From assembly GCA_000004985.1 (NCBI GenBank), contig GG738901.1: a stretch of 64,000 nucleotides of DNA; one strand, written 5' to 3'. A program made the position numbers and the translations under genes. This DNA is from Naegleria gruberi. Lineage: Eukaryota. Positions 32,624 through 48,030 of this stretch are shown piece after piece; the first letter of the stretch is position 1, and the number at the start of each line of letters is the position of its first letter. Below the pieces are notes generated by a model. It did no database searches, was not told the origin of the DNA, and saw nothing but the letters and a program-made list of their open reading frames with translations.

Positions 32624-35600
32624 ATGTTGAACAATAAATCTGAGCGAAGTGGTGATGAAAAAGAGGAGGATCTTGTGATTCAGAATCCCTCTAACTGTAA
32701 ATGTAATAATCACAACAATGGTAAGCAGCATCTTGAAGGGACAAATTTAATGCAACAACCACAACCACTGTTGGATGATGATGTGAATGATATTCTTCAA
32801 TTATTAACAATAGAAAGTTGCAGTGGAGGTTGTAGCTTTGATTGTCTTAAATTCGAAGAGAAGGAAGCAGTCGAAGAGGATACCTGTAATCCAATGTCGC
32901 AACAACATCTTCCTTCCGATATCAAATCGGAACCAATTCTCCTACTGCTTACTGATAAGAAGGCAACATCAACAATGGATCACAACGTAAGTTATCATCA
33001 AACATGTAAATTAACGTGCCATTTGGGCGATTTGACTAATTCAGAAGTCGTATGCATCTAACAAACAAGGCGACAATTTTCATCATGAAAAAAGAACAGA
33101 CAATATCATCAACAAGAAGAACAAGGCTTCCTCATCATTAGGCAGTGCTTTTAAAGAAGATTTTGTAAATTTTGTTTCAGAATCCACAAGTTCCTCTTAC
33201 ATTCCGCAACAGCCATTCACAACATTATATTCGAAAAGAATGAAGGACGAAGAGATGGTGGAGAATAATCAATCTACTGTTAATGAAGATGGAATCAAGA
33301 CATCATCTGAAGCTAAACCAACACAATTTAACCACTCCTCACATCATCAAAGGCCTCATCATATTAACAAGGGTCTCGGAGAAGAACAACAATACAAATT
33401 TCCTTCATCTATTACACCACTTTCACTGGCCAATATTCATGCCAATGCATCGACTAACTTACTGCTAACTTCATCAACATTATTTAATTCTTCAAGTGAA
33501 TCACATGGTGGTGGAACCATTTCGAGAAGCTCCTCCAATACTTCAATGGATAGCTCCTCCTATTCACTCTTGAATAATCACCATCATCTAACCACATCTT
33601 CCTCACCCTCTGATGGTTTTCACTCAACTCTAAAATCCCTAGAAAATGTTCTCCCTCCATTCTTTACTCCATGCGTGCCACCTCATGCATCATTCAATTA
33701 CTATTCAGAACATTATTGGGGAGAACATCCCTTATCACTAACCTCCTTCTCTCCAATTCTTCATTATGAAAAGAAGTCATCTCTAACGATTATTTGTCGA
33801 TACACACCACAACAAACTAGGAATTCTCCAAGAAGGGAGAGACCTTCCTCTCAAAAAGAATTAATAGAGAATGAGATTTATTGTCTGAAAGTTTCACTGG
33901 ACAAACCATCCATTCCAAAGCTGGAAAGGGATGCAGAAATTTCTCGATTCTTGACCAATGAATTTTCTCAAGTGTTGGATCCAGCACAACAGGTTATTGT
34001 CAGTACTAAGGCCTATTTGTCTGATTATTTTATTCTCGTGAGGGAGTTTATTGATTGTGTTTCGTTGAGATCATTTATTGATAGATCGAAAACATATGCT
34101 AGAGCAGAACCAATTACTGATGAGAATTTTGAAACCTTAACAGATGATACTGTAACACTTCTCAATGAAGAACAACGAGTGAAAGAAAACATTACAATAT
34201 TGGAAAGTAATTTAACACTTGCTATTTCTATTTGTATGAGTGTTGCTCAACTGCATCACTCAAGAGTTTGTCATGCTGACATTAGGCCAGAAAATATAAT
34301 TGTAGAAGGACCTAAATGCAATATAAGATTGATTGATTTTGGAAAGAGTACATTCCTCCCTTTGGAGCATCCATTTTTATATACCGATAAAATTATTGGT
34401 AGTCAAATGTATTGTGCTCCAGAGGCAACAGGAAAGATTCCAAAACCAATAGGTTTCCACACTGATATATATTCACTTGGATTTGTTCTCTTTGAGTTAT
34501 TTTCCAAAGAACATCCATTTACCAAGTTTAGGACATTAGATTTCGTATTTCAACATTTGACTCAACAGCCAGAGTCCTTGTTTCAAAATCTAGCGAGAAG
34601 GTCTTTTATATCAGCCAATGAAGGAAACCTATTCACAGCTGCTACTAAAGCAATTTCAAGACTAATTACCAAAGCAATTCAAAAATCTATTGAGAAACGT
34701 TATTTGAGTATTTTTGGATTGAAACGAGATTTGGTCTACATACAGAATGCTATTCAACTAGAAGATATGGAAGCTCTTGAAAATTTTCAAGCTGGTATGA
34801 ATGATGTTCAAACAACTTTATCCATACCTTATGGTGTATATGGTAGAGAGGAAATTTTCAAAAAATTGGAACTGAAACTTGAAAATATGATGGAATCTAG
34901 TGAGCCAACGATTGTCCTTCTGGGGGGCTATAGTGGCATAGGTAAATCATGTATTGTTAAGGAGTTTAGGACAAGAAGTAAAACAGCAATACAATTCTTT
35001 GAGGCAAAATACGATCAACATATGAATGTACCTTACTATGCCATTATTTCCATATGTAAACAAATTATTGGCGACGTTCTTGGAGAATCTGAATCAGTGA
35101 TTAAGGATTTCAGATTCCAACTTGGTACACTTATCAATTCAGATCAATTAGAAATGTTGAGTGATGCAATTCCTGACATGTCATATTTATTTACAACTAA
35201 TGCAACCAAAAAGCATACCTCCCCATCAATGGGAGATCAGAATGGAGAGCGTATGAAGCTCTTTTCACAAGGAAGTAAGTAATATTTTGAATTTAACATT
35301 ATAACAATATTATATTGCTCAGTTATTCATCTCTTTAGTGTTTATACTCATTTAAAGAAAAAGAGGTTATGCATTTTCTTGGATGACTTGCAATGGACTG
35401 ATTTTGATAGCATGAAGCTATTGAAGGAAATTCTTGGAACTGGTTCTTGTGATACTGTTCCTCTTTTAATTATTGGAGCATATAGAAATAACGAAGTGGG
35501 AAAGGACCATCCTCTATTTTACTTTTTAGAAAATCTCAAACTTAAAGTGAACATTGAAGAAATTGAAGTTGTTGAGTTGACAGAAGATCAATCTAACATG

Positions 35601-38600
35601 ATTGTCTCAGAGTCTTTAAGGAAAAATAGAGCTGAAACAGAAGAACTAACCAAAATACTCTTCTCTAGGACGAATGGAAACCCCTTCTTTTTAAAGCAGT
35701 TATTGGCTGGTTTATTTAAGGACGGATCTATTTATTTCGATACTCAAACAGATACTATTACATGGGATAAAAAGAAAATAGAAAATGCAGAATACTCTGA
35801 AAATGTTATTGACTATCTCCTTGGACATTTGGAAAAATTACCAAAACAAACACAAGATATTCTTGCATTTGCTTCTTGCTTTGGAAATAAGTTTTCCAAT
35901 GAAGACATGCTCCACCTACTCAATCAGCAACAAGAAGAAAAGATAGACTTGATGCAACTTAAAGAAAGATTGAACTATGCGGTGAAGGAGGGATGGATTT
36001 CAAATATCAATTCTGGTAATTTACGATTTAATCATGATAGACTCCAACAAGCTGCTTATGAATCACTGCCTTTGAATGAAAGGTTGAGAATTCACTATAC
36101 CTATGGTAAGCAGCTTCTCAAAAAAGCAGAAGAAGATGATTCTTTGGAGGAACGTTTATTTGATATAGTTGTACAGTTAAATCACAAACATAATGATCCT
36201 GCTTTCTTGGAGAATAGAGATGAGAGAAGATTACTCATTGACCTCAATAATAGAGCTGCAAAGAAGGCTTTGGAAACATCATCTACAGATAAAGCCATTG
36301 GCTTTGTTTATATTGCAAGGCAAATTCTAGAACACGAACCAGACTGTTGGAGTGAAGAAACTTATAAGTTGGCTTTTGAGAGTTTACTAATTGTTGGTAA
36401 TTGTAACTATTCTGTAAATATAGAATTGGCAACCTCTCTATTCATGGAAGCTATTCAAAAAGCTCAAAACAAGACAGATCTTTATGAGGCATGCAACCAT
36501 GGATTGATGGCCTATCTTTCACAAGGAAAATATGAAGATGTGTTTAAAATTTTGACTGATCATGTATTTACTACATATGAAGAGTTGAATTTCCTTACTC
36601 AGGAGCATACTGTTGAATCCTTGACAACATGGATACTTAACAAGATGAAATACATGAAAGAACATGTGCTCGTTAATTTTACTCAAAAATCTGACATTCT
36701 CAATTTGCCAGATATTGATGATTTGGAAAAGTGGCATCTTATTTGTTTGCTCACTCAATCCTGTCCTGCTGTTTTTCATATGAATAACTCACTCAGCAAA
36801 CACTACTTTATGATTATGATATTAATATCGTCTGATATAGTTTTAAATAATGGCATTACTCCTCTTTCCCCATTGTTAATTTCAGTCTTTGCATGGTCTT
36901 GGTGTAATTTTGAGTTTTATCCTCAGATGAACATGTTCTTAGAGGCAGGATTAGAGATGGAAAAGACTAGATTCAGGAATGAGCATGAATTGGCAAGTTG
37001 CACATTGATGAAGTTGATGAGTTATTACTTTTCGCCAACAATTAACCCTCTTGAGGTGTGGAATATATCCGAGGAAGCCTTCTTATTGTCTGTGAAATCA
37101 AAGAACAAACACTATGGCGGTTTCTCTATTCTGTGGTATCCATTCCATCACTTATTCTATAGCCACGGAGATGTAAAGACTTCTATTGGATTGAGCTTGA
37201 ATTCAATTGAGATTTTCAAGAGAAATGGAAATGTTATGTTGATGGATGCCAGTAAAATGATACTGGAATTGAAATATGTTCTTTCAGGAGATGTAGACCA
37301 TTACCTGCCAACGTATGTAAGCCAAGTGAAGGAATATCCATTCTTTAGACAAATGCACTACTCGTTCAAGGGAATTTCACTCTATTTCCAAAATGATATT
37401 GAAAAATCTTTCAAGTGTATGGAAAAATCGTATGATTTTAGAGAAGACTCTGTTGGTATGTGTTCAAGCTGGATTGATTTAATCTTCCTAGGTTTAATCT
37501 CAGCTATCTTTTTGAGAAGTGCTCAAGAAAAGATTGAAAAAGCCCAAGAAATACTGAAATATTCTATAGAAAGATTGGAAATGATTTCCCAAGCTAATTC
37601 TTCTGTTTTTCTTGCTCCTTTGGAGTTCATAAGAGCCGAGACATTGTACTCAGAATATTGTAGAACAGGTGTCGAAAATACTAGAAAAATCATTTCTCAC
37701 TACAGAAAGAGTTATATTATGGCTGAAAAGGAAAGAAACACCTTTTTAGCTAGGCTGATTAATTTGAGAACAGGAGAGTTTTACAACAGTCTAGGTATGG
37801 ATGATGGTATTAGTGGAAACTACTTCCTTAGAGCTATGGAATCTTTTGAACAGTTTGGTGCTTCCATCGTTGTTGATTATATTTTGGAGAATTATTCAGG
37901 TCACATCGATGGCTATTCATCATTTAGTAATAGAAATCCTGAACAAGTATTCTCTAACACTTCTCTATCTGATGAAACAACAGATCACTCTCTTGCTGGA
38001 GTAACAAAGAGCAGAATTTCTGAATCAACAGAATTGGATTTTAGAGAGATTTTCATTTCAATTCTGCCAATTCTTTCAGAACAAACGTTATCACCAAGAT
38101 GTTGTTTGATTTTGAAGAGAGATTCAACAGTTTATGTAGATGCCGAATTTAATGCAGACCTGAATTCTATTGAAGCACTTTCGTCTACCAAACAATTCGA
38201 AAATAGTGATTTGGACAAATTTTCAGATTTATTCCCTCTCAAGATGATTCACAGAACTCTAAGATCCAGAACAGAGCAACAACTCGTATGGAATGACAAT
38301 GAGAAAGAGTATTACTTTGTGAAGAATGTAGTGGCCTCTGCTTTATCTATTCCTATCATGAAGAAAAAGACAGTCATAGGTATGCTTTTTATTATTATTT
38401 TATTTATATTATTTAATGTATTAAGGTTGTATATACTTGGAAAATAAGGAAACGAAGGATGTATTCACAACTGAAAAAATTAACCTTGCCAAACTTATCA
38501 TCTCGATCAGTTTGGACAATGCTGGAATTTTCACATCTATTAACAAATCCTATGCTAGGTTTTTACCTGCTGAATTCTTAAAGTTGCTTGGAAAGAGTCA

Positions 38601-39423
38601 CGTAACTAAGGTAAGGTTGGGCGATGCAGTTTCTAGAGAAATGACAGTGCTCTTCAGTGATATTTATGGATTTACAGAGATTATGGAGGGACTTTCTGCA
38701 AAGGATGGCTTTGCTTTTATTAATCTACTATTGAAGAGTATTGCACCTCCAATTTCAAGAAACTCTGGATTTATTGACAAGTTTGTTGGTGATGGAATAT
38801 TGGCATTGTTTATTGAACCGCAAGGAGCTGTCACTGCAGCTTTAGAAATGATTTCAGAATTGGAAGTTTTCAATAGTAGAAATAATACCAATGTAAAGTT
38901 GGGAGTTGGTTTGCATCATGGTATTGTTCAACTTGGTACGATTGGATATGAGCAACGATTGGATGCTACTGTTATTTCAGATACTGTGAACACAGCTAGC
39001 AGATGTGAATCTCTCACAAGAACTTTTCATTCACATATTCTAGTTACTAAACCAGTTATGGATGCTGTTACAGTGCCACACAGTGTGATAAGTACCGAGT
39101 TGGGTAAATTCATGCTGAAAGGAAAACACATACCTCATCAAATTTACAATATCGCTTCTAAATCATGGAAAGGAAGTGGTAGTGCTAAAGAATTCGCTTT
39201 ACTAAGCAAAGTTATTGATCTCTTCTCCAGGAGTGAATTTACCGAATCATTTGCCCTCGCAGAAACAATTCTCAAGAATACAAAGAACAATACCATTATA
39301 GCTGCATGCAACATGTATAAGGAAGCATCAACATTATACGGATCAGTTGTTTTACCAAGTGAATGGCAAGGTGAAATTCGGTTGACCAAGGATGGAGAAG
39401 TCAGAGAGTACTTTTCAAAATAA
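32624..39423 (+). CDS. Multidomain signalling protein: Ser/Thr kinase-like domain, AAA/STAND-type P-loop NTPase, helical/TPR-like region, GAF-like domain, class III adenylyl/guanylyl cyclase (4 exons, 2,215 aa)
   Basis: Exons are 32624-32986, 33045-35274, 35323-38379 and 38426-39423. The introns are 58, 48 and 46 nt (GTAAGT, GTAAGT and GTATGC ... AG), and the total is 6648 nt. Kinase strings are VCHADIRPENIIV, IDFGKS and MYCAPE. The P-loop is LLGGYSGIGKSCIV and the Walker B is LCIFLDDLQWTD. The GAF end, restored by splicing, is TVIGCIYLENKETKDVFTTEKINLAKLIISISLDNA. Cyclase strings are MTVLFSDIYGFTE, IDKFVGDGILALF and ISDTVNTASRCES. Confidence 0.85.
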
Positions 39424-42271: not shown

Positions 42272-43690
42272 TTATTCAGTACTTGGATTGTAAAATTCGT
42301 TAATGGAAGAGTGAGAAATAGATGCCACAAACTTTTCTTTGGTAATTTCATAGTACGACTCGACAGAATTATAATCTGCATCAGGATTTTTTGCTAGCAT
42401 GTTGGCATTGGTGATAAGATGATGCATTAGAGAGTCTTTCTCTATTAAATTGTCCTGAATCATTTTGTGAACCATTCCTGAACTGAAATAATTTGTTGAA
42501 TCCCATCTATTATGTGGTAACTGTGTTAAAATCTCTAAATAGAGAAGACCTCCAACAATATCCAATGTAAATATATTCTCCAACAATGACACATATTTCA
42601 CAGATAACCTTACCAGTTTTGGAAATCTGCTTCTAGTAATTCCTTGTAAAATATTCTTCTCTGCGGTATCATCTAAAAATTGAGGCATTTTGATTGTCAA
42701 ATCAATTACGTTTTGGAAAGAACAGTCCTCTAAAAATTTAACATTCGTCCAATCACTATCTCCACCTAAAATTAAGGATAGAAAAAGGACACTGTTTGGT
42801 ATTTGAAACTTTTCACTTTCCTCCTGTGATATTTCTATTGACATGGCAATAAATCTGTTTGAAAACAACAAATTATCTTTTGCATCTGAAGAGGAAACCA
42901 TCAATCCAATAGCATTGCTATTCAGAGTACTACTGAGAGATGTGAGTAAACCTAGGTTCATTAGTTGGCATTCCTCAAGAGTAGAAAACTCATTATAACT
43001 CGAATTTCTCTCACTATCAAAGTATGATATCATTTCCAATGATAAAATCAATGCCTTATGTAGAAACAACTCATAGCTGCCAAGGGAGAGGTTTTTCTCA
43101 ATCCTTTGCATCTTTTCATTGTCCACCATTAACTTGGCGAATCTATGATCAAATATCTCCTCAACATCCCAGTCGTAATATTCATTTTCCATTTGATTGA
43201 AATCTATTGTAAAACCATACGTGCTAAAAATGTTGTTTAATTCAACAATGTTGCGATATTCACTATTTACGCCCATTTCAGTTCTTTCAATCAACTTTTG
43301 TAAGTTAGCCATTTTCAACGTCTCTTCTTCATTAATATCACCCCTGGCGAGTTGAAGCCCACTATAAGAGTCATATCTTCTCAAATACAGAGTCATTTCA
43401 AATATGTTGGAAACTTTCAGCCAAAACTCTTGCATTTCCTCATCGTTTAATAATTGATCCCTAAGAGATTTAGAAACACAACAACAAACTGCATGAACTG
43501 CTCTTACCTGTGTCAATTTAATATACGAAAATAAGTATTGGTCGTAAAATCGAAAATAGACACACGGATACATTTTACCAAAGCGGCTGATAGGTCCTAG
43601 AAGATATTCAAAAATACTAAATTTCCACAGGTCTGTGGGAATATCCAACAAGGAAGAGTGTGGGTGATGGGGTTGTTGTGATGTGAACAT
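42272..43690 (-). CDS. Hypothetical protein with possible N-terminal F-box-like motif
   Basis: A 472-aa ORF starts at ATG after an A-run. The string LLDIPTDLWKFSIFEYLL lies near the N-terminus. No other domain was recognised. Confidence 0.7.
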   Translation of the reverse strand: MFTSQQPHHPHSSLLDIPTDLWKFSIFEYLLGPISRFGKMYPCVYFRFYDQYLFSYIKLTQVRAVHAVCCCVSKSLRDQLLNDEEMQEFWLKVSNIFEMTLYLRRYDSYSGLQLARGDINEEETLKMANLQKLIERTEMGVNSEYRNIVELNNIFSTYGFTIDFNQMENEYYDWDVEEIFDHRFAKLMVDNEKMQRIEKNLSLGSYELFLHKALILSLEMISYFDSERNSSYNEFSTLEECQLMNLGLLTSLSSTLNSNAIGLMVSSSDAKDNLLFSNRFIAMSIEISQEESEKFQIPNSVLFLSLILGGDSDWTNVKFLEDCSFQNVIDLTIKMPQFLDDTAEKNILQGITRSRFPKLVRLSVKYVSLLENIFTLDIVGGLLYLEILTQLPHNRWDSTNYFSSGMVHKMIQDNLIEKDSLMHHLITNANMLAKNPDADYNSVESYYEITKEKFVASISHSSINEFYNPSTE

Positions 43691-43740: not shown

Positions 43741-46563
43741 TTAAAGGTCATCATCTGATTCAACCTCTTCGACTCCCTCCACTATTGGTTCTTCTTCTTC
43801 TACAATCATAGGGCCACTTTGATTGTCAACTCTGGCTTTGGTGAATTTGTAGAGTTTGTCCAAGAGTGAACGACCTTGATCCCACCAAGAAATATCAACC
43901 TCATGATAGGTGCCACGAAGTGGATTGATAACTCCAATATTCTTAATTTCCATTCCATCCAATCTAGCCATGGCTGCATAGCAGAGTAATTGAATAATCC
44001 ACTCAACTTCAATATCTTGGGATACCGAACATTTAATATCAATAATGGTCTCGCCATCAATGATGATATCTGCCTCTCCAGTAACATGTTTTCCATAACT
44101 GAGACTTCTATGGGTATTAACTGAGCTTTCAGTTTTTTCTACAATAAATGGAACAAAGTGCTCTTGTAAATTATTGAACAGTTCTGTATAGTTTGGAGCA
44201 ATGTCCTTAATAAAGTCAAACTTTTTCTTTAGATTGGTATTGCCAAGATAGAGCATTCTGGTTCTTCCCTCTTTAACAACTGCATCAAGTTTGGAAATTT
44301 CGAATACACTTTCTAGAATATCAATTGACTCATAATTTGGATTTGTAAAAATTCTGTAAGCTGTTTTTAAACTGTCTACATAACCGGGTGGGAAGGCATA
44401 TTCTGTCATTACTGGAATAACCTCGAATGAAAATTGTCCCTTCTCCAATATTTTCTCGAAAGATTCAATAATCTCAGTCATGACTATCTTTTCATAGCCA
44501 TCAGTAATAGATTTTAACAAAGCTTTTGGAGGTTTTCCATTTCTCATCAACTGCTTCAATTTCTTTGCATATCTATTAAAGACCTGGATACTGCCTGTAT
44601 TTAATACGATTGCCTCGTTAATGAAGAGTTCAGTGCATGTATGACTAAAACCTCCTCCATTAGGTATTTTCTCAGAAATCATTCTACAAAATAAAGTATC
44701 AATAAAGTTTCCAAAGTCTGTAAACATTTGATTTTCGTAAACCACGTCACAGTATGCAAAGTCTGTATCCACAATTTTGGTTTTCGTAAATTCGATTTGT
44801 GGCAAACATCCTTCTTCCTTGAGTATTGTCATGAGTTCTCCATCAATATTACGAACCATATTTGTTACGGTGTATGGATTAATAGATGAGTCGGATGCTG
44901 ATCTTGGCTGTTCTGAAATACGCAAGTCTGTGGGACTATGTAATCTGAATACGCTACGATCAATCTCTGTTATATAACTCAAACAAGTTGCTGTCTTGGG
45001 GAGAACAATGTGTAACTCATCCTTTGCTCTGGTAACAGCCACATATAATACACGTCTTAGTTCCGCATCATTATCACCTTTCCATTTATCATTTGATGAA
45101 TCCACCAAGAAAACAATATCCCACTCCAAACCTTTAGACTTGTGTATGGTTGATAGGCAAACTTTTCCAGTTGTTGTGTGTCTTTCCATTTCCTTTAAAG
45201 ATTTTGATTTTTCCATAATAGTAATATGTGGAATGAAGAATTTAGATAATTGTTCCTCTACCTTATAGAGACCATAATTTGTTGGAGAAAGGATTGCTAT
45301 TCTTTCTCTTGGCACTCCACGTTTCAAATATTCTGATATTTTCTTAGCAACATACAAACCCTGGTTATCATTTACAATGATTGGTTTAAGATTAGATTCT
45401 CTTGTGGTTGTCATTTCTTTTGGAATATTATCTGGATTATTTCTCAAAATTGCATTTGCCACTTGCAAAATTTCTGGCGTACTTCTATAATTTCTAGTCA
45501 GTGTTAACAGCTTAGAGTTTGGATATTTTGAGTGAAAATTCAAAATATGTTCCACACTGGATCCTCTCCATGAGTAAATGTTTTGCGAATCATCTCCTAC
45601 GGCAATTATCTTGCATCCTCTTTTGTGAAACTCTTCAAAAATCTCTGCTTGAAAATTATCAATATCTTGATACTCATCAATTATGAGATACTTTTTCTTT
45701 TTACAAATTTCATCCGCAATTTCTGGATAATTCTTCATTAAGTTCCTCAATCTATATCCATATTCAATCACACAAGCTTGAGAATCAAAATATTGCCAAT
45801 ATTTCTTCAATGTCTTGTAAGCAAATGCATCAATGGTTCCAATAGTAAATTTACTCTTAACTCCAATACTGGCAAGCTTTTCCTTCATATCATTTGCTGC
45901 CAATCTTGAAAATGTTGTCAACATGATCTGATGAGCTGGAATTTTCAAATACTTTATCATGTAAACAATTTTACAAATAATGGTTGTTGTCTTTCCACTT
46001 CCAGCGCAAGCCAACACTAACAAGTCATCATTCACATCTCCAAAAACAACTTGCTTTTGTTCTTCACTCAAATCAATCTGTACATCATCAATTGTAAATG
46101 TTTTCATAATTTCCTCTTCGGATGGAAAAACAATTTCCTTCTTCTTCCTTACTCTTTTTACAGGCTTTGAAATTTCCTCATCACCTCCAAAATTAATTTC
46201 CGGCATTAAACTAATTGCCTCATTACTCATAGCATTAATGATTTCTTCCTTTTCTTGAGGTTGGTGAGTAGAAAATAATTCCTTCACCTCATCATCTTGT
46301 TGCTTCAAAGTCTGTTTCCTTCTCGTAGCATTATTAATCAAAGATTGAGAAAAACATCTCCTCATCATTACATGATTCAATAAAGTAGAGTTATTGGTTT
46401 TCAACAAGGCTGATGAAGATCCTGTCGGGAATGATTTATTTCCACCATTAATTTTAATATGATTAATTATATTATTGTTATTACTATTTAAATGATGTAA
46501 AGTTGAAGTGGATGATAATGTATTCAAGCGATAGAGAAGTGAATTGTGCTTGATGTTGCGCAT
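43741..46563 (-). CDS. UvrD/Rep/PcrA-type SF1 DNA helicase fused to a C-terminal PD-(D/E)xK (RecB/Cas4-like) nuclease domain
   Basis: A 940-aa intronless ORF. Helicase motifs are I ACAGSGKTTT, II YLIIDEYQD, III VGDDSQNIYSWRGS, IV RNYRSTPEI, V STIHKSKGLEWDIVFL and VI LYVAVTRAKDEL. The C-terminal string is GEADIIIDGETIIDIKCS...EWIIQLLCYAAM. The N-terminal ~100 aa are Ser/Asn/Arg-rich and may be a targeting sequence. Confidence 0.9.
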   Translation of the reverse strand: MRNIKHNSLLYRLNTLSSTSTLHHLNSNNNNIINHIKINGGNKSFPTGSSSALLKTNNSTLLNHVMMRRCFSQSLINNATRRKQTLKQQDDEVKELFSTHQPQEKEEIINAMSNEAISLMPEINFGGDEEISKPVKRVRKKKEIVFPSEEEIMKTFTIDDVQIDLSEEQKQVVFGDVNDDLLVLACAGSGKTTTIICKIVYMIKYLKIPAHQIMLTTFSRLAANDMKEKLASIGVKSKFTIGTIDAFAYKTLKKYWQYFDSQACVIEYGYRLRNLMKNYPEIADEICKKKKYLIIDEYQDIDNFQAEIFEEFHKRGCKIIAVGDDSQNIYSWRGSSVEHILNFHSKYPNSKLLTLTRNYRSTPEILQVANAILRNNPDNIPKEMTTTRESNLKPIIVNDNQGLYVAKKISEYLKRGVPRERIAILSPTNYGLYKVEEQLSKFFIPHITIMEKSKSLKEMERHTTTGKVCLSTIHKSKGLEWDIVFLVDSSNDKWKGDNDAELRRVLYVAVTRAKDELHIVLPKTATCLSYITEIDRSVFRLHSPTDLRISEQPRSASDSSINPYTVTNMVRNIDGELMTILKEEGCLPQIEFTKTKIVDTDFAYCDVVYENQMFTDFGNFIDTLFCRMISEKIPNGGGFSHTCTELFINEAIVLNTGSIQVFNRYAKKLKQLMRNGKPPKALLKSITDGYEKIVMTEIIESFEKILEKGQFSFEVIPVMTEYAFPPGYVDSLKTAYRIFTNPNYESIDILESVFEISKLDAVVKEGRTRMLYLGNTNLKKKFDFIKDIAPNYTELFNNLQEHFVPFIVEKTESSVNTHRSLSYGKHVTGEADIIIDGETIIDIKCSVSQDIEVEWIIQLLCYAAMARLDGMEIKNIGVINPLRGTYHEVDISWWDQGRSLLDKLYKFTKARVDNQSGPMIVEEEEPIVEGVEEVESDDDL

Positions 46564-46660: not shown

Positions 46661-48030
46661 TCAGCGTCTCTTGACTCTTATTTTCTTCTTCTTTGTAGTA
46701 GGTACATTATATTCATCGTCATCCTCTTTCATTAGTAAGGGAACTTCATCTTTCAAAGATTCTGCAACAATATTACTGAAAGATTTCTCAAACTGAACAA
46801 TAGATTCAGGTTGTTTTGGTACAGAGGATGACAAAGAAGGAGCCAAACTAGCTTCTTCTTTCGGTTCTTCTTCTGGTGTGGGTTTAGCAGAGATGCATTC
46901 CTTACATATATTGAATTTAATATCTAGTGGATAATCAAATACAAGTTGAGAAACAGCTTTGCTGATAGTAGTTTCTTTAAAATCTAAATTAGAAGGATTG
47001 TGTTTCTGGGTGAAAAATATTGGACTAGTGTCAAGTTGTTTACAATTCAAATCTTGTAAGGTAGATTCAATTTGATGTTCTGCAGTGATAAGGGATGTAA
47101 TATTCCTGAAATGAATGACTTTTTCAAAAGCATTTTTGATTCCTTGCATGTTTTCAATGAGACCTGACATGGTTGAGTATTGATCTTGAACAATTGCCAT
47201 TCTCTCTTGATGTTCTGATTGGCTTTTGTCAAGAATTTCTTTTCTTTTGTCTTCCACTTGTGCCAAATAGTTGTCAATCATAGTATTAACCCTCATTTCG
47301 TAAGTTTCTTGATTACTGACTAGTTTAGTTTGGAGAGAGCCAATCTTTTCCAATGCAACATACAAGAATTCAATATCTTGATCAACTTGCTCAATCTTGT
47401 TAGACATTCCTGCCTTAGCCTCTTCCATATGTTCATCAATTGGGACACATGTATGATTACTATGATTAGTTGATAAAGAACACAAATGACAAACTTATGT
47501 CTCTTACATTTTCCAACAGTTAGAATTGTTCCAAGTGGAGCTTTTTTATGAGAAGCAAAGAACTTGGGAGCATGAATGGATGTGAAACATTCCTCACAGA
47601 ATCTACTATTACAATCCTCACATTCAACTTGAACAATGTTAGTTTCACAATTGGCACAAGTTTCTCCCTTCTCCCTCTCCATCATATAATTTTCTACAGT
47701 ACTCTTGAGATCGTAATTAATAGGAAAGACACTTGGTACATCTTCAGAATGATTGACTTTACATTCCTTGTTGCAAGAGGGACAATTGAAACAAATTCCT
47801 TCCTTCTTGTTACTTTGATCACTTGTTGTTCCATACAATTTGTTGATCTTTGTTTGATTTCCCAGCACAGGAGCTTGAAGAAATGGTTCTTTGAGTTTTA
47901 ACTTTTTAAAATTGATATTTGCCATAATGCATCGGGTGCACATTGAATGACCACAAGGTAAAACTCTTGGATCTTGAAGAAGTTCAAAGCAAAACTTGCA
48001 TGAAAGTGATTCCTCGTCAATTACTAACAT
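46661..48030 (-). CDS. RING / B-box / coiled-coil (TRIM-like) protein; reading frame broken once inside the second B-box
   Basis: The RING is CKFCFELLQDPRVLPCGHSMCTRCI...CPSC. B-box 1 is CANCETNIVQVECEDCNSRFCEECFTSIHAPKFFASH. Then CKRHK (frame A) abuts VCHLCSLSTNHSNHTCVPIDEH (frame B, which opens at 47494), and a long coiled coil follows. ORFs 47320-48030 and 46661-47485 overlap in different frames, and no intron can fit. Confidence 0.7.

Follow-up and report, generated by a model that had tools for sequence, protein, structure and literature searches.

A probable giant-virus-type helicase-nuclease gene domesticated in Naegleria gruberi

Introduction

A 64,000-nucleotide stretch of the Naegleria gruberi genome (contig GG738901.1, assembly GCA_000004985.1), hereafter the window, contains an open reading frame (ORF) whose predicted product joins a UvrD-type superfamily 1A (SF1A) helicase to a PD-(D/E)xK nuclease. 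The locus raises the question of where such a gene came from and what it does in a heterolobosean cell. The initial annotation, made from the letters of the window, considered either an organelle-targeted repair enzyme or a horizontally acquired gene. The analysis reported here indicates that the product is probably a single-chain helicase-nuclease of an otherwise giant-virus family (Nucleocytoviricota, mainly Mimiviridae-like), captured by a heterolobosean ancestor and now an ordinary gene.

The complete coding sequence (940 aa plus stop) lies at 43741..46563 on the minus strand, as do all features of this gene given below; it starts with ATG, runs uninterrupted for 940 codons and was rightly described at the outset as intronless in N. 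gruberi. Over 874 aa the predicted product shows 100% identity to N. gruberi XP_002672029.1 (EFC39285.1, NAEGRDRAFT_52552, UniProt D2VVC4), which is named there as a 'predicted protein' and whose gene model begins at Met67 of the ORF. This match assigns the window to the nuclear DNA of N. gruberi. The upstream neighbor, a RING/B-box gene, has its stop codon at 46661, and the gap of 97 nt to the helicase ORF leaves no space for an extra 5' exon.

Domain organization

The helicase core (aa 160-530, 44974..46086) was delimited by Pfam, NCBIfam and an alignment with PcrA. It contains all SF1A motifs from I to VI of the RecA-like domains 1A and 2A, each of which was located as initially reported: I (Walker A) ACAGSGKT at residue 185 (aa 185-192, 45988..46011; invariant in the homolog alignment), Ia TTFSR at 216, II (Walker B) DEYQD at 296 (aa 296-300, 45664..45678; D296, E297, Q299 and D300 invariant), III GDDSQNIYSWRGS at 323, IV NYRS at 358, V TIHKSKGLEW at 472, and VI YVAVTRAK at 507. 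Throughout the set the motifs are invariant or nearly so among aligned homologs. The Pfam families UvrD-helicase (PF00580, E 4e-40, 138 bits), UvrD_C (PF13361, E 3e-25, 90 bits) and AAA_19 (E 1e-18) all exceed their gathering scores. The closest solved structure is PcrA (1pjr, E 1e-39), with UvrD and Rep next among the best.

The alignment with PcrA consists of three blocks, in which residues 160-246 of the query correspond to PcrA 7-94, residues 276-447 to PcrA 203-379, and residues 443-545 to PcrA 534-643. PcrA residues 95-202 (domain 1B) and 380-533 (including domain 2B) have no counterpart in the Naegleria protein. From the jumps between PcrA 94 and 203 and between 379 and 534 it follows that 1B is cut to about 29 aa and that 2B is absent. 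The motor is thus predicted from its sequence to be a minimal SF1A core of about 370 aa with a vestigial 1B domain. Scores against the NCBIfam equivalog models are 5-10 times under the cut-offs (in bits, PcrA 182.8 vs 911, Rep 172 vs 951, UvrD 153-171 vs 965-1144, addA_Gpos 82 vs 708, recB 100 vs 696, RecB-like 85 vs 650), and because of this the protein is classified here, by profile scores, as the ortholog of no named bacterial enzyme.

A Pfam scan of aa 530-940 gave no match. The nuclease domain, of the RecB/Cas4/MGME1 type, was placed at aa ~745-915 (43819..44331) by structure modeling and fold search. The nuclease signature D...D.K...QL.Y that had been read from the sequence proved to be real. 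Its three motifs, G829-E-A-D832, D842-I-K844-C-S846 and Q858-L-L-C-Y862 (43978..44079), are kept in 100-114 of 120 aligned homologs: G829-E-x-D832 in 114 and 113, D842-x-K844-x-S846 in 100 (plus 11 with E), 108 and 105, and Q858-L-L-x-Y862 in 105 and 107. R767, N880 and G884 are also invariant or nearly so in this alignment. An AlphaFold2 model of aa 530-940 has a predicted local distance difference test score (pLDDT) of 87.4 and a predicted TM-score (pTM) of 0.85. In the PDB, each of the top 25 Foldseek matches of the model is a PD-(D/E)xK nuclease of the Cas4/lambda-exonuclease/Dna2/AdnA type, at modest E values (from 0.018 up) and with probabilities of 0.2-1.0 (at least 0.8 in the top ten). 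As modeled, the C-terminal domain is a restriction-endonuclease-like alpha/beta fold of the RecB/Cas4/Dna2/MGME1-type PD-(D/E)xK nucleases. Motifs, Pfam matches and the fold model therefore agree with the fusion of a UvrD-type SF1A helicase and a RecB/Cas4-like nuclease that was proposed initially.

A Cas4-like iron-sulfur (Fe-S) nuclease was considered and rejected. Neither the homolog alignment nor the 120-sequence alignment contains a conserved four-Cys Fe-S set, so that the domain does not belong with Fe-S nucleases such as Cas4, AddB and Dna2; the most conserved Cys column upstream of the nuclease core is occupied by Leu759 in N. gruberi.

Motor and nuclease are linked by a family-specific, mostly alpha-helical middle region (aa 545-744, 44332..44931) whose helices are modeled with confidence. 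These ~200 aa ahead of the nuclease core belong to the same conserved module, and the two together are called the C-module below. The structure model of aa 150-940 (pLDDT 87.9, pTM 0.88) suggests that helicase and nuclease are held in a fixed arrangement. The acidic C-terminal tail (aa 916-940, 43744..43818) is modeled with low confidence (pLDDT below 50) and is not conserved.

Distribution of homologs

Prokaryotes were searched with one genome per species (185,579 species). The best 80 loci match only the helicase core (aa ~150-540, best E 5e-33); nearly all of these matches end at ~520-540, and none extends past aa ~590. Giant-virus metagenome-assembled genome (GVMAG) contigs of IMG/VR match aa 163-927 with E values down to 1e-109. 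A direct bacterial or endosymbiont source of a UvrD/AddA-type gene was weighed against these figures. The helicase core does score best against PcrA/Rep/UvrD models and structures, but the scores fall far under the NCBIfam cut-offs (PcrA 183 vs 911, AddA 82 vs 708), the best prokaryotic E value compares poorly with that of the viral contigs, and domains 1B and 2B are missing. Such a source is very improbable, and it was rejected because the C-module is left uncovered in all of the best 80 prokaryotic loci.

In a large protein database, hundreds of full-length homologs were found (30-35% identity, ~80% coverage, E 1e-94 to 1e-124), among them Catovirus CTV1 ARF08794; the whole architecture is carried by Mimiviridae/Klosneuvirinae isolates and by many GVMAGs. 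Viral folds were searched in BFVD with the 411-aa C-module, which was matched as a unit in the helicases of Fadolivirus (A0A7D3QTW5; E 8e-21, TMq 0.64) and Hokovirus (A0A1V0SET7), with TMq 0.63-0.64 for the pair, and also in Moumouvirus (H2EDS0) and Sylvanvirus. Of 1.84 billion cluster representatives, an exhaustive phmmer search with the C-module (E <= 1e-3) returned just 201, the self-match included. No C-module homolog was found in other eukaryotes by phmmer or in prokaryotes among the best 80 loci. A word-indexed search with the C-terminal 396 aa gave zero matches, not even to itself, and this was taken as a limit of the tool and not as evidence.

Where viral gene contexts were inspected, the genes are densely packed, lack introns and include many ORFans. 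An intein-bearing SF2 helicase, NDK, Ras-like GTPases, and F-box and RING proteins are among them, as would be expected in a giant virus.

Several variants occur within the viral part of the family. Two pithovirus proteins annotated as 'AP endonuclease family 2' (A0A481Z608 and A0A481Z335) share the C-module (E 2e-7, ~380 aligned columns), and the helical-plus-nuclease module seems to be portable between giant-virus DNA-repair proteins. A large viral subclade near the Naegleria clade (P0009-P0050 etc.; L084:9383-12268) carries an N-terminal DnaQ/RNase_T-like 3'-5' exonuclease (PF00929). Many of its members have a degenerate PD-(D/E)xK triad (DDR in P0026, PDT in P0040, SDM in P0047, TIA in P0050), and it looks as if one nuclease had been substituted for the other. 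Over the whole family the D-D/E-K triad is degenerate in ~35 of 165 members, many with the DnaQ fusion. In a viral-like clade around P0005/6, the catalytic Lys is gone from three proteins (P0007, P0008 and P0020), which read D-x-N or SEV there and keep the remaining module; from their residues these look like nuclease-dead helicases. P0029 and P0046 (1227-1257 aa) match PF05203 (Hom_end_hint), indicating an intein inside the helicase-nuclease, and in L084 an intein/LAGLIDADG-bearing SF2 helicase adjoins the helicase-nuclease copy.

Five eukaryotic copies were found. Those of N. lovaniensis and N. fowleri are 41-42% identical to the N. gruberi protein. At ~41% identity between orthologs the gene evolves fast, though its catalytic residues are constrained, and both the D-D-K triad and the other nuclease and helicase motifs are intact in all five copies. 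A fourth copy (P0004) lies on an environmental Naegleria-like contig (L164) with a second gene that also matches the window. The fifth (P0126) is on a 130-kb metagenomic contig beside intron-split HYOU1 and OST3/6 genes; since these neighbors are split by introns and the HYOU1 homolog has its best named matches in Willaertia magna and Acrasis kona, the host is assigned to an uncultured heterolobosean. In the databases searched, the eukaryotic carriers are thus only Naegleria spp. and this one uncultured heterolobosean. A broadly conserved eukaryotic clade, which would have spoken for an ordinary repair gene, was not found, and the view that the architecture is atypical of nuclear eukaryotic repair genes is borne out.

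Phylogeny and direction of transfer

The phylogeny of the helicase core that the initial annotation had proposed was computed from MAFFT alignments with neighbor-joining on Kimura distances and 200 bootstrap replicates. For the helicase-core trees (370 columns), 16 bacterial/phage UvrD-like cores served as outgroup, and a full-length tree (725 columns) was rooted with a deep GVMAG clade picked out by the outgroup analysis. The four Naegleria-type sequences form one clade in both (100% each), and Naegleria together with P0126 form one clade with 67% (helicase core) and 83% (full length) support. This eukaryotic clade falls inside viral diversity. It is contained in a 59-tip clade (29% helicase core, 70% full length), in a 137-tip clade (62% and 95%) and in a 149-tip clade (100% full length, not recovered with the helicase core). 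In the rooted helicase-core tree the viruses are monophyletic without the eukaryotes in 0 of 200 replicates; for the full-length tree, an unrooted equivalent, this count is not applicable. Nearest to the eukaryotic clade among the viral groups are the clade with the DnaQ-like fusion and that of P0005/6/20/127, and not the Catovirus/Naegleriavirus lineage.

As the diversity of the family is centered in viruses and the heterolobosean clade is nested within it, the direction of transfer is likely from virus to heterolobosean, as judged from these sequences. Horizontal acquisition, one of the two explanations offered at the start, is therefore the best explanation. Of the broader suggestion of a bacterial, viral or organellar style of gene, the AddA/RecB-like layout and a viral source stand, the latter specified as a giant virus (Imitervirales/Mimiviridae-like), and a bacterial or organellar source does not.

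The link between a virus and exactly this Naegleria gene is already on record. In Supplementary Table 2 of Arthofer et al. 2024 (PMC11043551), CDS 493 of Naegleriavirus (NiV) is a 'DNA helicase, UvrD/REP type' with Catovirus ARF08794 as best match and 5762.XP_002672029.1 as eggNOG seed ortholog, and it is listed as 'sister branch to or within Naegleria homologs'. The same authors considered such viral genes putatively host-derived and stated that no endogenized viral genomes had been seen in Naegleria (PMC11043551). An old heterolobosean gene captured by Klosneuvirinae-like viruses from a Naegleria-like host would agree with that placement, and with the fact that NiV infects Naegleria, so that exchange is possible both ways. 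This opposite direction is nevertheless unlikely. The diversity of the family is much larger in giant viruses than in eukaryotes, the Naegleria clade (100%) is nearer to the DnaQ-fused and P0005/6 clades than to Catovirus/NiV, the replicates give no viral group that leaves the eukaryotes out, and a homolog of the C-module was found neither in other eukaryotes nor among the best 80 prokaryotic loci. With the broader sampling used here, the likely direction is the reverse of that given by Arthofer et al. 2024, and the event is ancient.

A number of points weigh against capture from a virus. The trees are simple neighbor-joining trees at ~30-40% identity, and support for the immediate sister group is weak (27-60%). 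The root consists of distant bacterial/phage helicase cores with an ingroup monophyly of 65-80%; long-branch attraction would, however, draw the eukaryotic branch, which evolves fast, to the outgroup, and the nesting observed runs counter to this. Most of the 'viral' sequences are metagenomic and are taken as viral from GVMAG/IMG-VR labels, an ORFan-dense, intron-free context and some named isolates. No ortholog turned up in Willaertia magna or Acrasis kona, whose proteomes are present in the database; the spread in Heterolobosea is therefore patchy and needs losses or later transfer. The accessions of the Naegleria gene are mentioned in the main text of no paper in the searched literature.

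Genomic context and domestication

Codon usage and flanking synteny, named initially as further checks, are both those of a resident gene. The G+C content of the window is ~33% throughout, and the G+C content, third-position G+C content and codon-adaptation index of the helicase gene (the index built from other ORFs of the window) are mid-range and hence host-like. The neighbors are cellular (a kinase-STAND NTPase, a leucine-rich repeat (LRR) protein, a RING/B-box protein and a PLP decarboxylase), and no viral hallmark genes were found among the neighbors in the 64-kb window. Synteny and introns were compared with the N. lovaniensis ortholog. The order helicase - LRR - kinase/STAND/cyclase is kept between the two species as one-sided synteny. 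N. gruberi differs in the orientation of the LRR gene, which is inverted, and in an additional 472-aa ORF that separates this gene from the helicase. Two spliceosomal introns interrupt the N. lovaniensis ortholog (L001:10001-12947), one of 122 nt following codon 327 and one of 53 nt following codon 627, the second with the boundaries GTAAGT...CAG. These represent either a gain after the transfer or a loss in N. gruberi.

A recent giant-virus insertion (an endogenous viral element) or a contamination of the assembly would account for the viral identity of the nearest non-heterolobosean relatives. It is the least probable of the origins considered and was rejected on the synteny, the introns of the N. 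lovaniensis ortholog, the host-like codon usage and the cellular neighbors, one of them with an apparent intron. Orthologs are present in N. lovaniensis, N. fowleri, the environmental Naegleria-like contig and another heterolobosean, and the identity to any virus is just 30-35%. The transfer from a virus is accordingly old, the gene being common to deeply diverged Naegleria species and another heterolobosean, syntenic, and intron-bearing in N. lovaniensis.

Three observations concern the neighboring genes. The 472-aa ORF (42272..43690, minus strand) has no Pfam match, and the matching stretch of N. lovaniensis lacks a counterpart; together with the LRR inversion, the ORF looks like a local rearrangement or insertion. 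The RING + B-box (TRIM-like) neighbor (46661..48030, minus strand) consists of two overlapping ORFs (47320..48030 and 46661..47485), which look like one gene split by a short intron or a frame change. At 33240..39423 (plus strand) a kinase + AAA_16/STAND ORF, a 1022-aa ORF without a Pfam match and a 328-aa ORF follow in succession and together run collinear with one kinase-STAND-guanylate cyclase gene (1990 aa) in N. lovaniensis; the three are probably one multi-exon gene.

N-terminal extension and localization

The N-terminal extension of ~100 aa, described initially as Ser/Asn/Arg-rich, is real. The Walker A residue stands at position 188 in N. gruberi, at 170-188 across Naegleria and at 115 in P0126, compared with 40-97 in the viral homologs, and aa 1-150 (46114..46563) are delimited by this comparison as a eukaryote-specific, candidate targeting region. 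In N. gruberi the extension is Ser/Asn/Thr-rich and basic, with the first acidic residue at position 90; this acid-free run of 89 residues is the longest among the 30 window ORFs of at least 200 aa. Over the five eukaryotic copies the acid-free run is 21-89 residues and the net charge of the first 40 aa is +3 to +8, and three of them begin with ML(R/N)L(F/I). The first D/E of the viral homologs is at a median position of 6 (90th percentile 31). The gene call of P0004 is truncated (L164:~200-622); its frame runs upstream to MKRLLGGALRQCSGHQ, beginning MKRLLGGALRQ, and the extended product has a basic, acid-free N-terminus of the Naegleria kind together with PRKKVAK/KPKRVSRAKAK clusters. A monopartite nuclear localization signal (NLS)-like cluster, KRVRKKK, is located at aa 136-142 of N. 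gruberi (46138..46158), and weaker RKK/RKR clusters are found at similar positions in N. lovaniensis and N. fowleri. The eukaryotic copies have gained a basic, acid-free extension of ~90-100 aa that would most plausibly direct the enzyme to a compartment with DNA, either the mitochondrion or the nucleus.

The features of the extension are compatible with a mitochondrial presequence. For the N-termini, the maximal hydrophobic moment does not exceed that of shuffled sequences (fraction of shuffles at or above the observed value 0.11-0.83), a result that neither supports nor excludes a presequence. Of the organellar idea in the initial annotation, then, the basic, acid-free composition is upheld in all five copies, and their amphipathicity does not rise above that of shuffles.

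Mitochondrial genome maintenance is a possible but tentative role, in which the viral helicase-nuclease would be imported by means of the extension and would resect or degrade linear mitochondrial DNA as a functional analogue of MGME1/DNA2/Hmi1. It is favored by the added N-terminus, its charge and its lack of acidic residues, unlike the viral homologs, by the ML(R/N)L(F/I) start of three copies, and by Rx[FYL]|[SA]-like sites (RCF|S in N. gruberi, RSL|S in N. lovaniensis). It is weakened by the hydrophobic moment, by the partly low-complexity Asn/Ser composition of the N. gruberi extension and by the NLS-like clusters also present; the structural match to MGME1 reflects a shared nuclease fold and not orthology. 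Literature was searched for virus-derived helicases or nucleases of Naegleria mitochondria, with no relevant result.

Processing of DNA ends in the nucleus or nucleolus (break resection, fork processing or extrachromosomal rDNA circles), or nuclear/cytoplasmic defense against linear viral DNA, is an equally tentative assignment. KRVRKKK and the similarly placed clusters of the orthologs point in this direction, although disordered regions often contain short basic clusters, and those seen here are weakly conserved. AddAB and RecBCD, the closest functional analogues, both mend breaks and destroy foreign linear DNA. Naegleria is also a giant-virus host (PMC11043551). No link to rDNA circles or defense was seen, the neighbors being ordinary cellular genes and the PADLOC defense library not having been searched.

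Proposed mechanism

If the helicase-nuclease, probably acquired from a Mimiviridae-like virus by an ancestor that Naegleria shares with at least one further heterolobosean, works in the manner of AddA/RecB/AdnB, which have the same domain order, the motor would load at a DNA end or a 3' tail and translocate 3'->5' on ATP, and the displaced or tracked strand would be threaded into the C-terminal nuclease. The outcome would be resection or degradation of linear or broken DNA in recombination, repair or the processing of replication intermediates. The 2B domain of UvrD, PcrA and Rep is regulatory and touches duplex DNA; with 2B missing and 1B vestigial, the analogy suggests that the family-specific helical region provides duplex contacts or strand separation. 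The occurrence of the C-module in DnaQ fusions and in the pithovirus proteins annotated as AP endonucleases points to viral DNA repair or end processing. In the cell, a gene kept catalytically intact and provided with a basic extension points to a job in a DNA-containing compartment.

This mechanism has its own difficulties. Polarity, substrate and the coupling of motor and nuclease are inferred from AddA/RecB, which are only distant relatives. AddA and RecB act with partner subunits, and no AddB, RecC or RecD was found beside the gene at the loci inspected in the window or in the viral contexts.

Significance

Giant viruses and protists are well documented to exchange genes, and the present gene, a solid finding, is a probable case of the transfer of a helicase-nuclease from a giant virus to a protist. 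New here are the viral center of diversity with a nested heterolobosean clade, which makes the direction from virus to host likely, the age of the transfer, and the finding that the captured gene is catalytically intact and has an added basic N-terminal extension. If true, this would be molecular evidence of an ancient association between Mimiviridae-like viruses and Heterolobosea, whose first virus isolate is no older than 2024. The compact, 2B-less single chain could serve biochemistry as a possible minimal AddA/RecB analogue. Some applied interest lies in the ortholog of N. fowleri, a human pathogen, since animals have no close homolog.

Mitochondria have taken on a phage-type RNA polymerase, Twinkle and Pol gamma. 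A comparable history, in which the giant-virus helicase-nuclease was recruited before the Naegleria radiation for mitochondrial, organellar or episomal genome maintenance and gained its presequence en route, is doubtful, somewhat more so than either localization taken by itself. If true, mitochondrial recruitment would be a new case of the principle known from phage-type enzymes, with a Nucleocytoviricota donor, and recruitment would mean that the association of giant viruses and heteroloboseans predates the divergence of N. gruberi and N. fowleri.

Comparison with known systems

Several known systems share parts of this architecture. Cas4, Dna2, Exo5 and MGME1 are the top fold matches of the C-terminal domain and have the same layout of D...D/ExK and QxxxY. 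Cas4, Dna2, Exo5 and AddB carry a four-Cys Fe-S cluster, the conserved set of which is lacking in the Naegleria nuclease. Dna2 has an SF1B 5'->3' motor and an N-terminal nuclease, in contrast to the SF1A motor and C-terminal nuclease found here, and MGME1, unlike the Naegleria protein, has no motor.

UvrD, PcrA and Rep give the best matches of the motor in sequence and structure and share all SF1A motifs. They possess domains 1B and 2B and no nuclease; the Naegleria protein is the reverse, its 1B being vestigial. AddA, RecB and AdnB resemble it in combining, within a single chain, an SF1A motor with a RecB-type nuclease placed C-terminally. They are longer (~1100-1240 aa vs 940 aa) and differ in that the Naegleria protein has no 2B and only a remnant of 1B, and scores far under the NCBIfam cut-offs. 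Chi recognition is without support in the Naegleria protein. Among viral proteins, a 'UvrD/Rep-like helicase' of Acanthamoeba polyphaga mimivirus (APMV; AKI80299.1) was described as AddA-like by sequence (Akashi & Takemura 2019, PMC6466248); it is a probable member of the giant-virus helicase-nuclease family.

The closest system is that of the giant-virus UvrD/REP helicase-nucleases, which have the same 2B-less core, helical region and PD-(D/E)xK motifs over aa ~160-925 at 30-35% identity. Many of them, unlike the Naegleria copy, carry inteins or, at the N-terminus, a DnaQ-like exonuclease (PF00929), and in roughly one in five the nuclease triad is degenerate, whereas the eukaryotic copies are intact. 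The heterolobosean copies, for their part, add the basic N-terminus of ~90-100 aa and sit in a syntenic cellular chromosome, one of them with introns.

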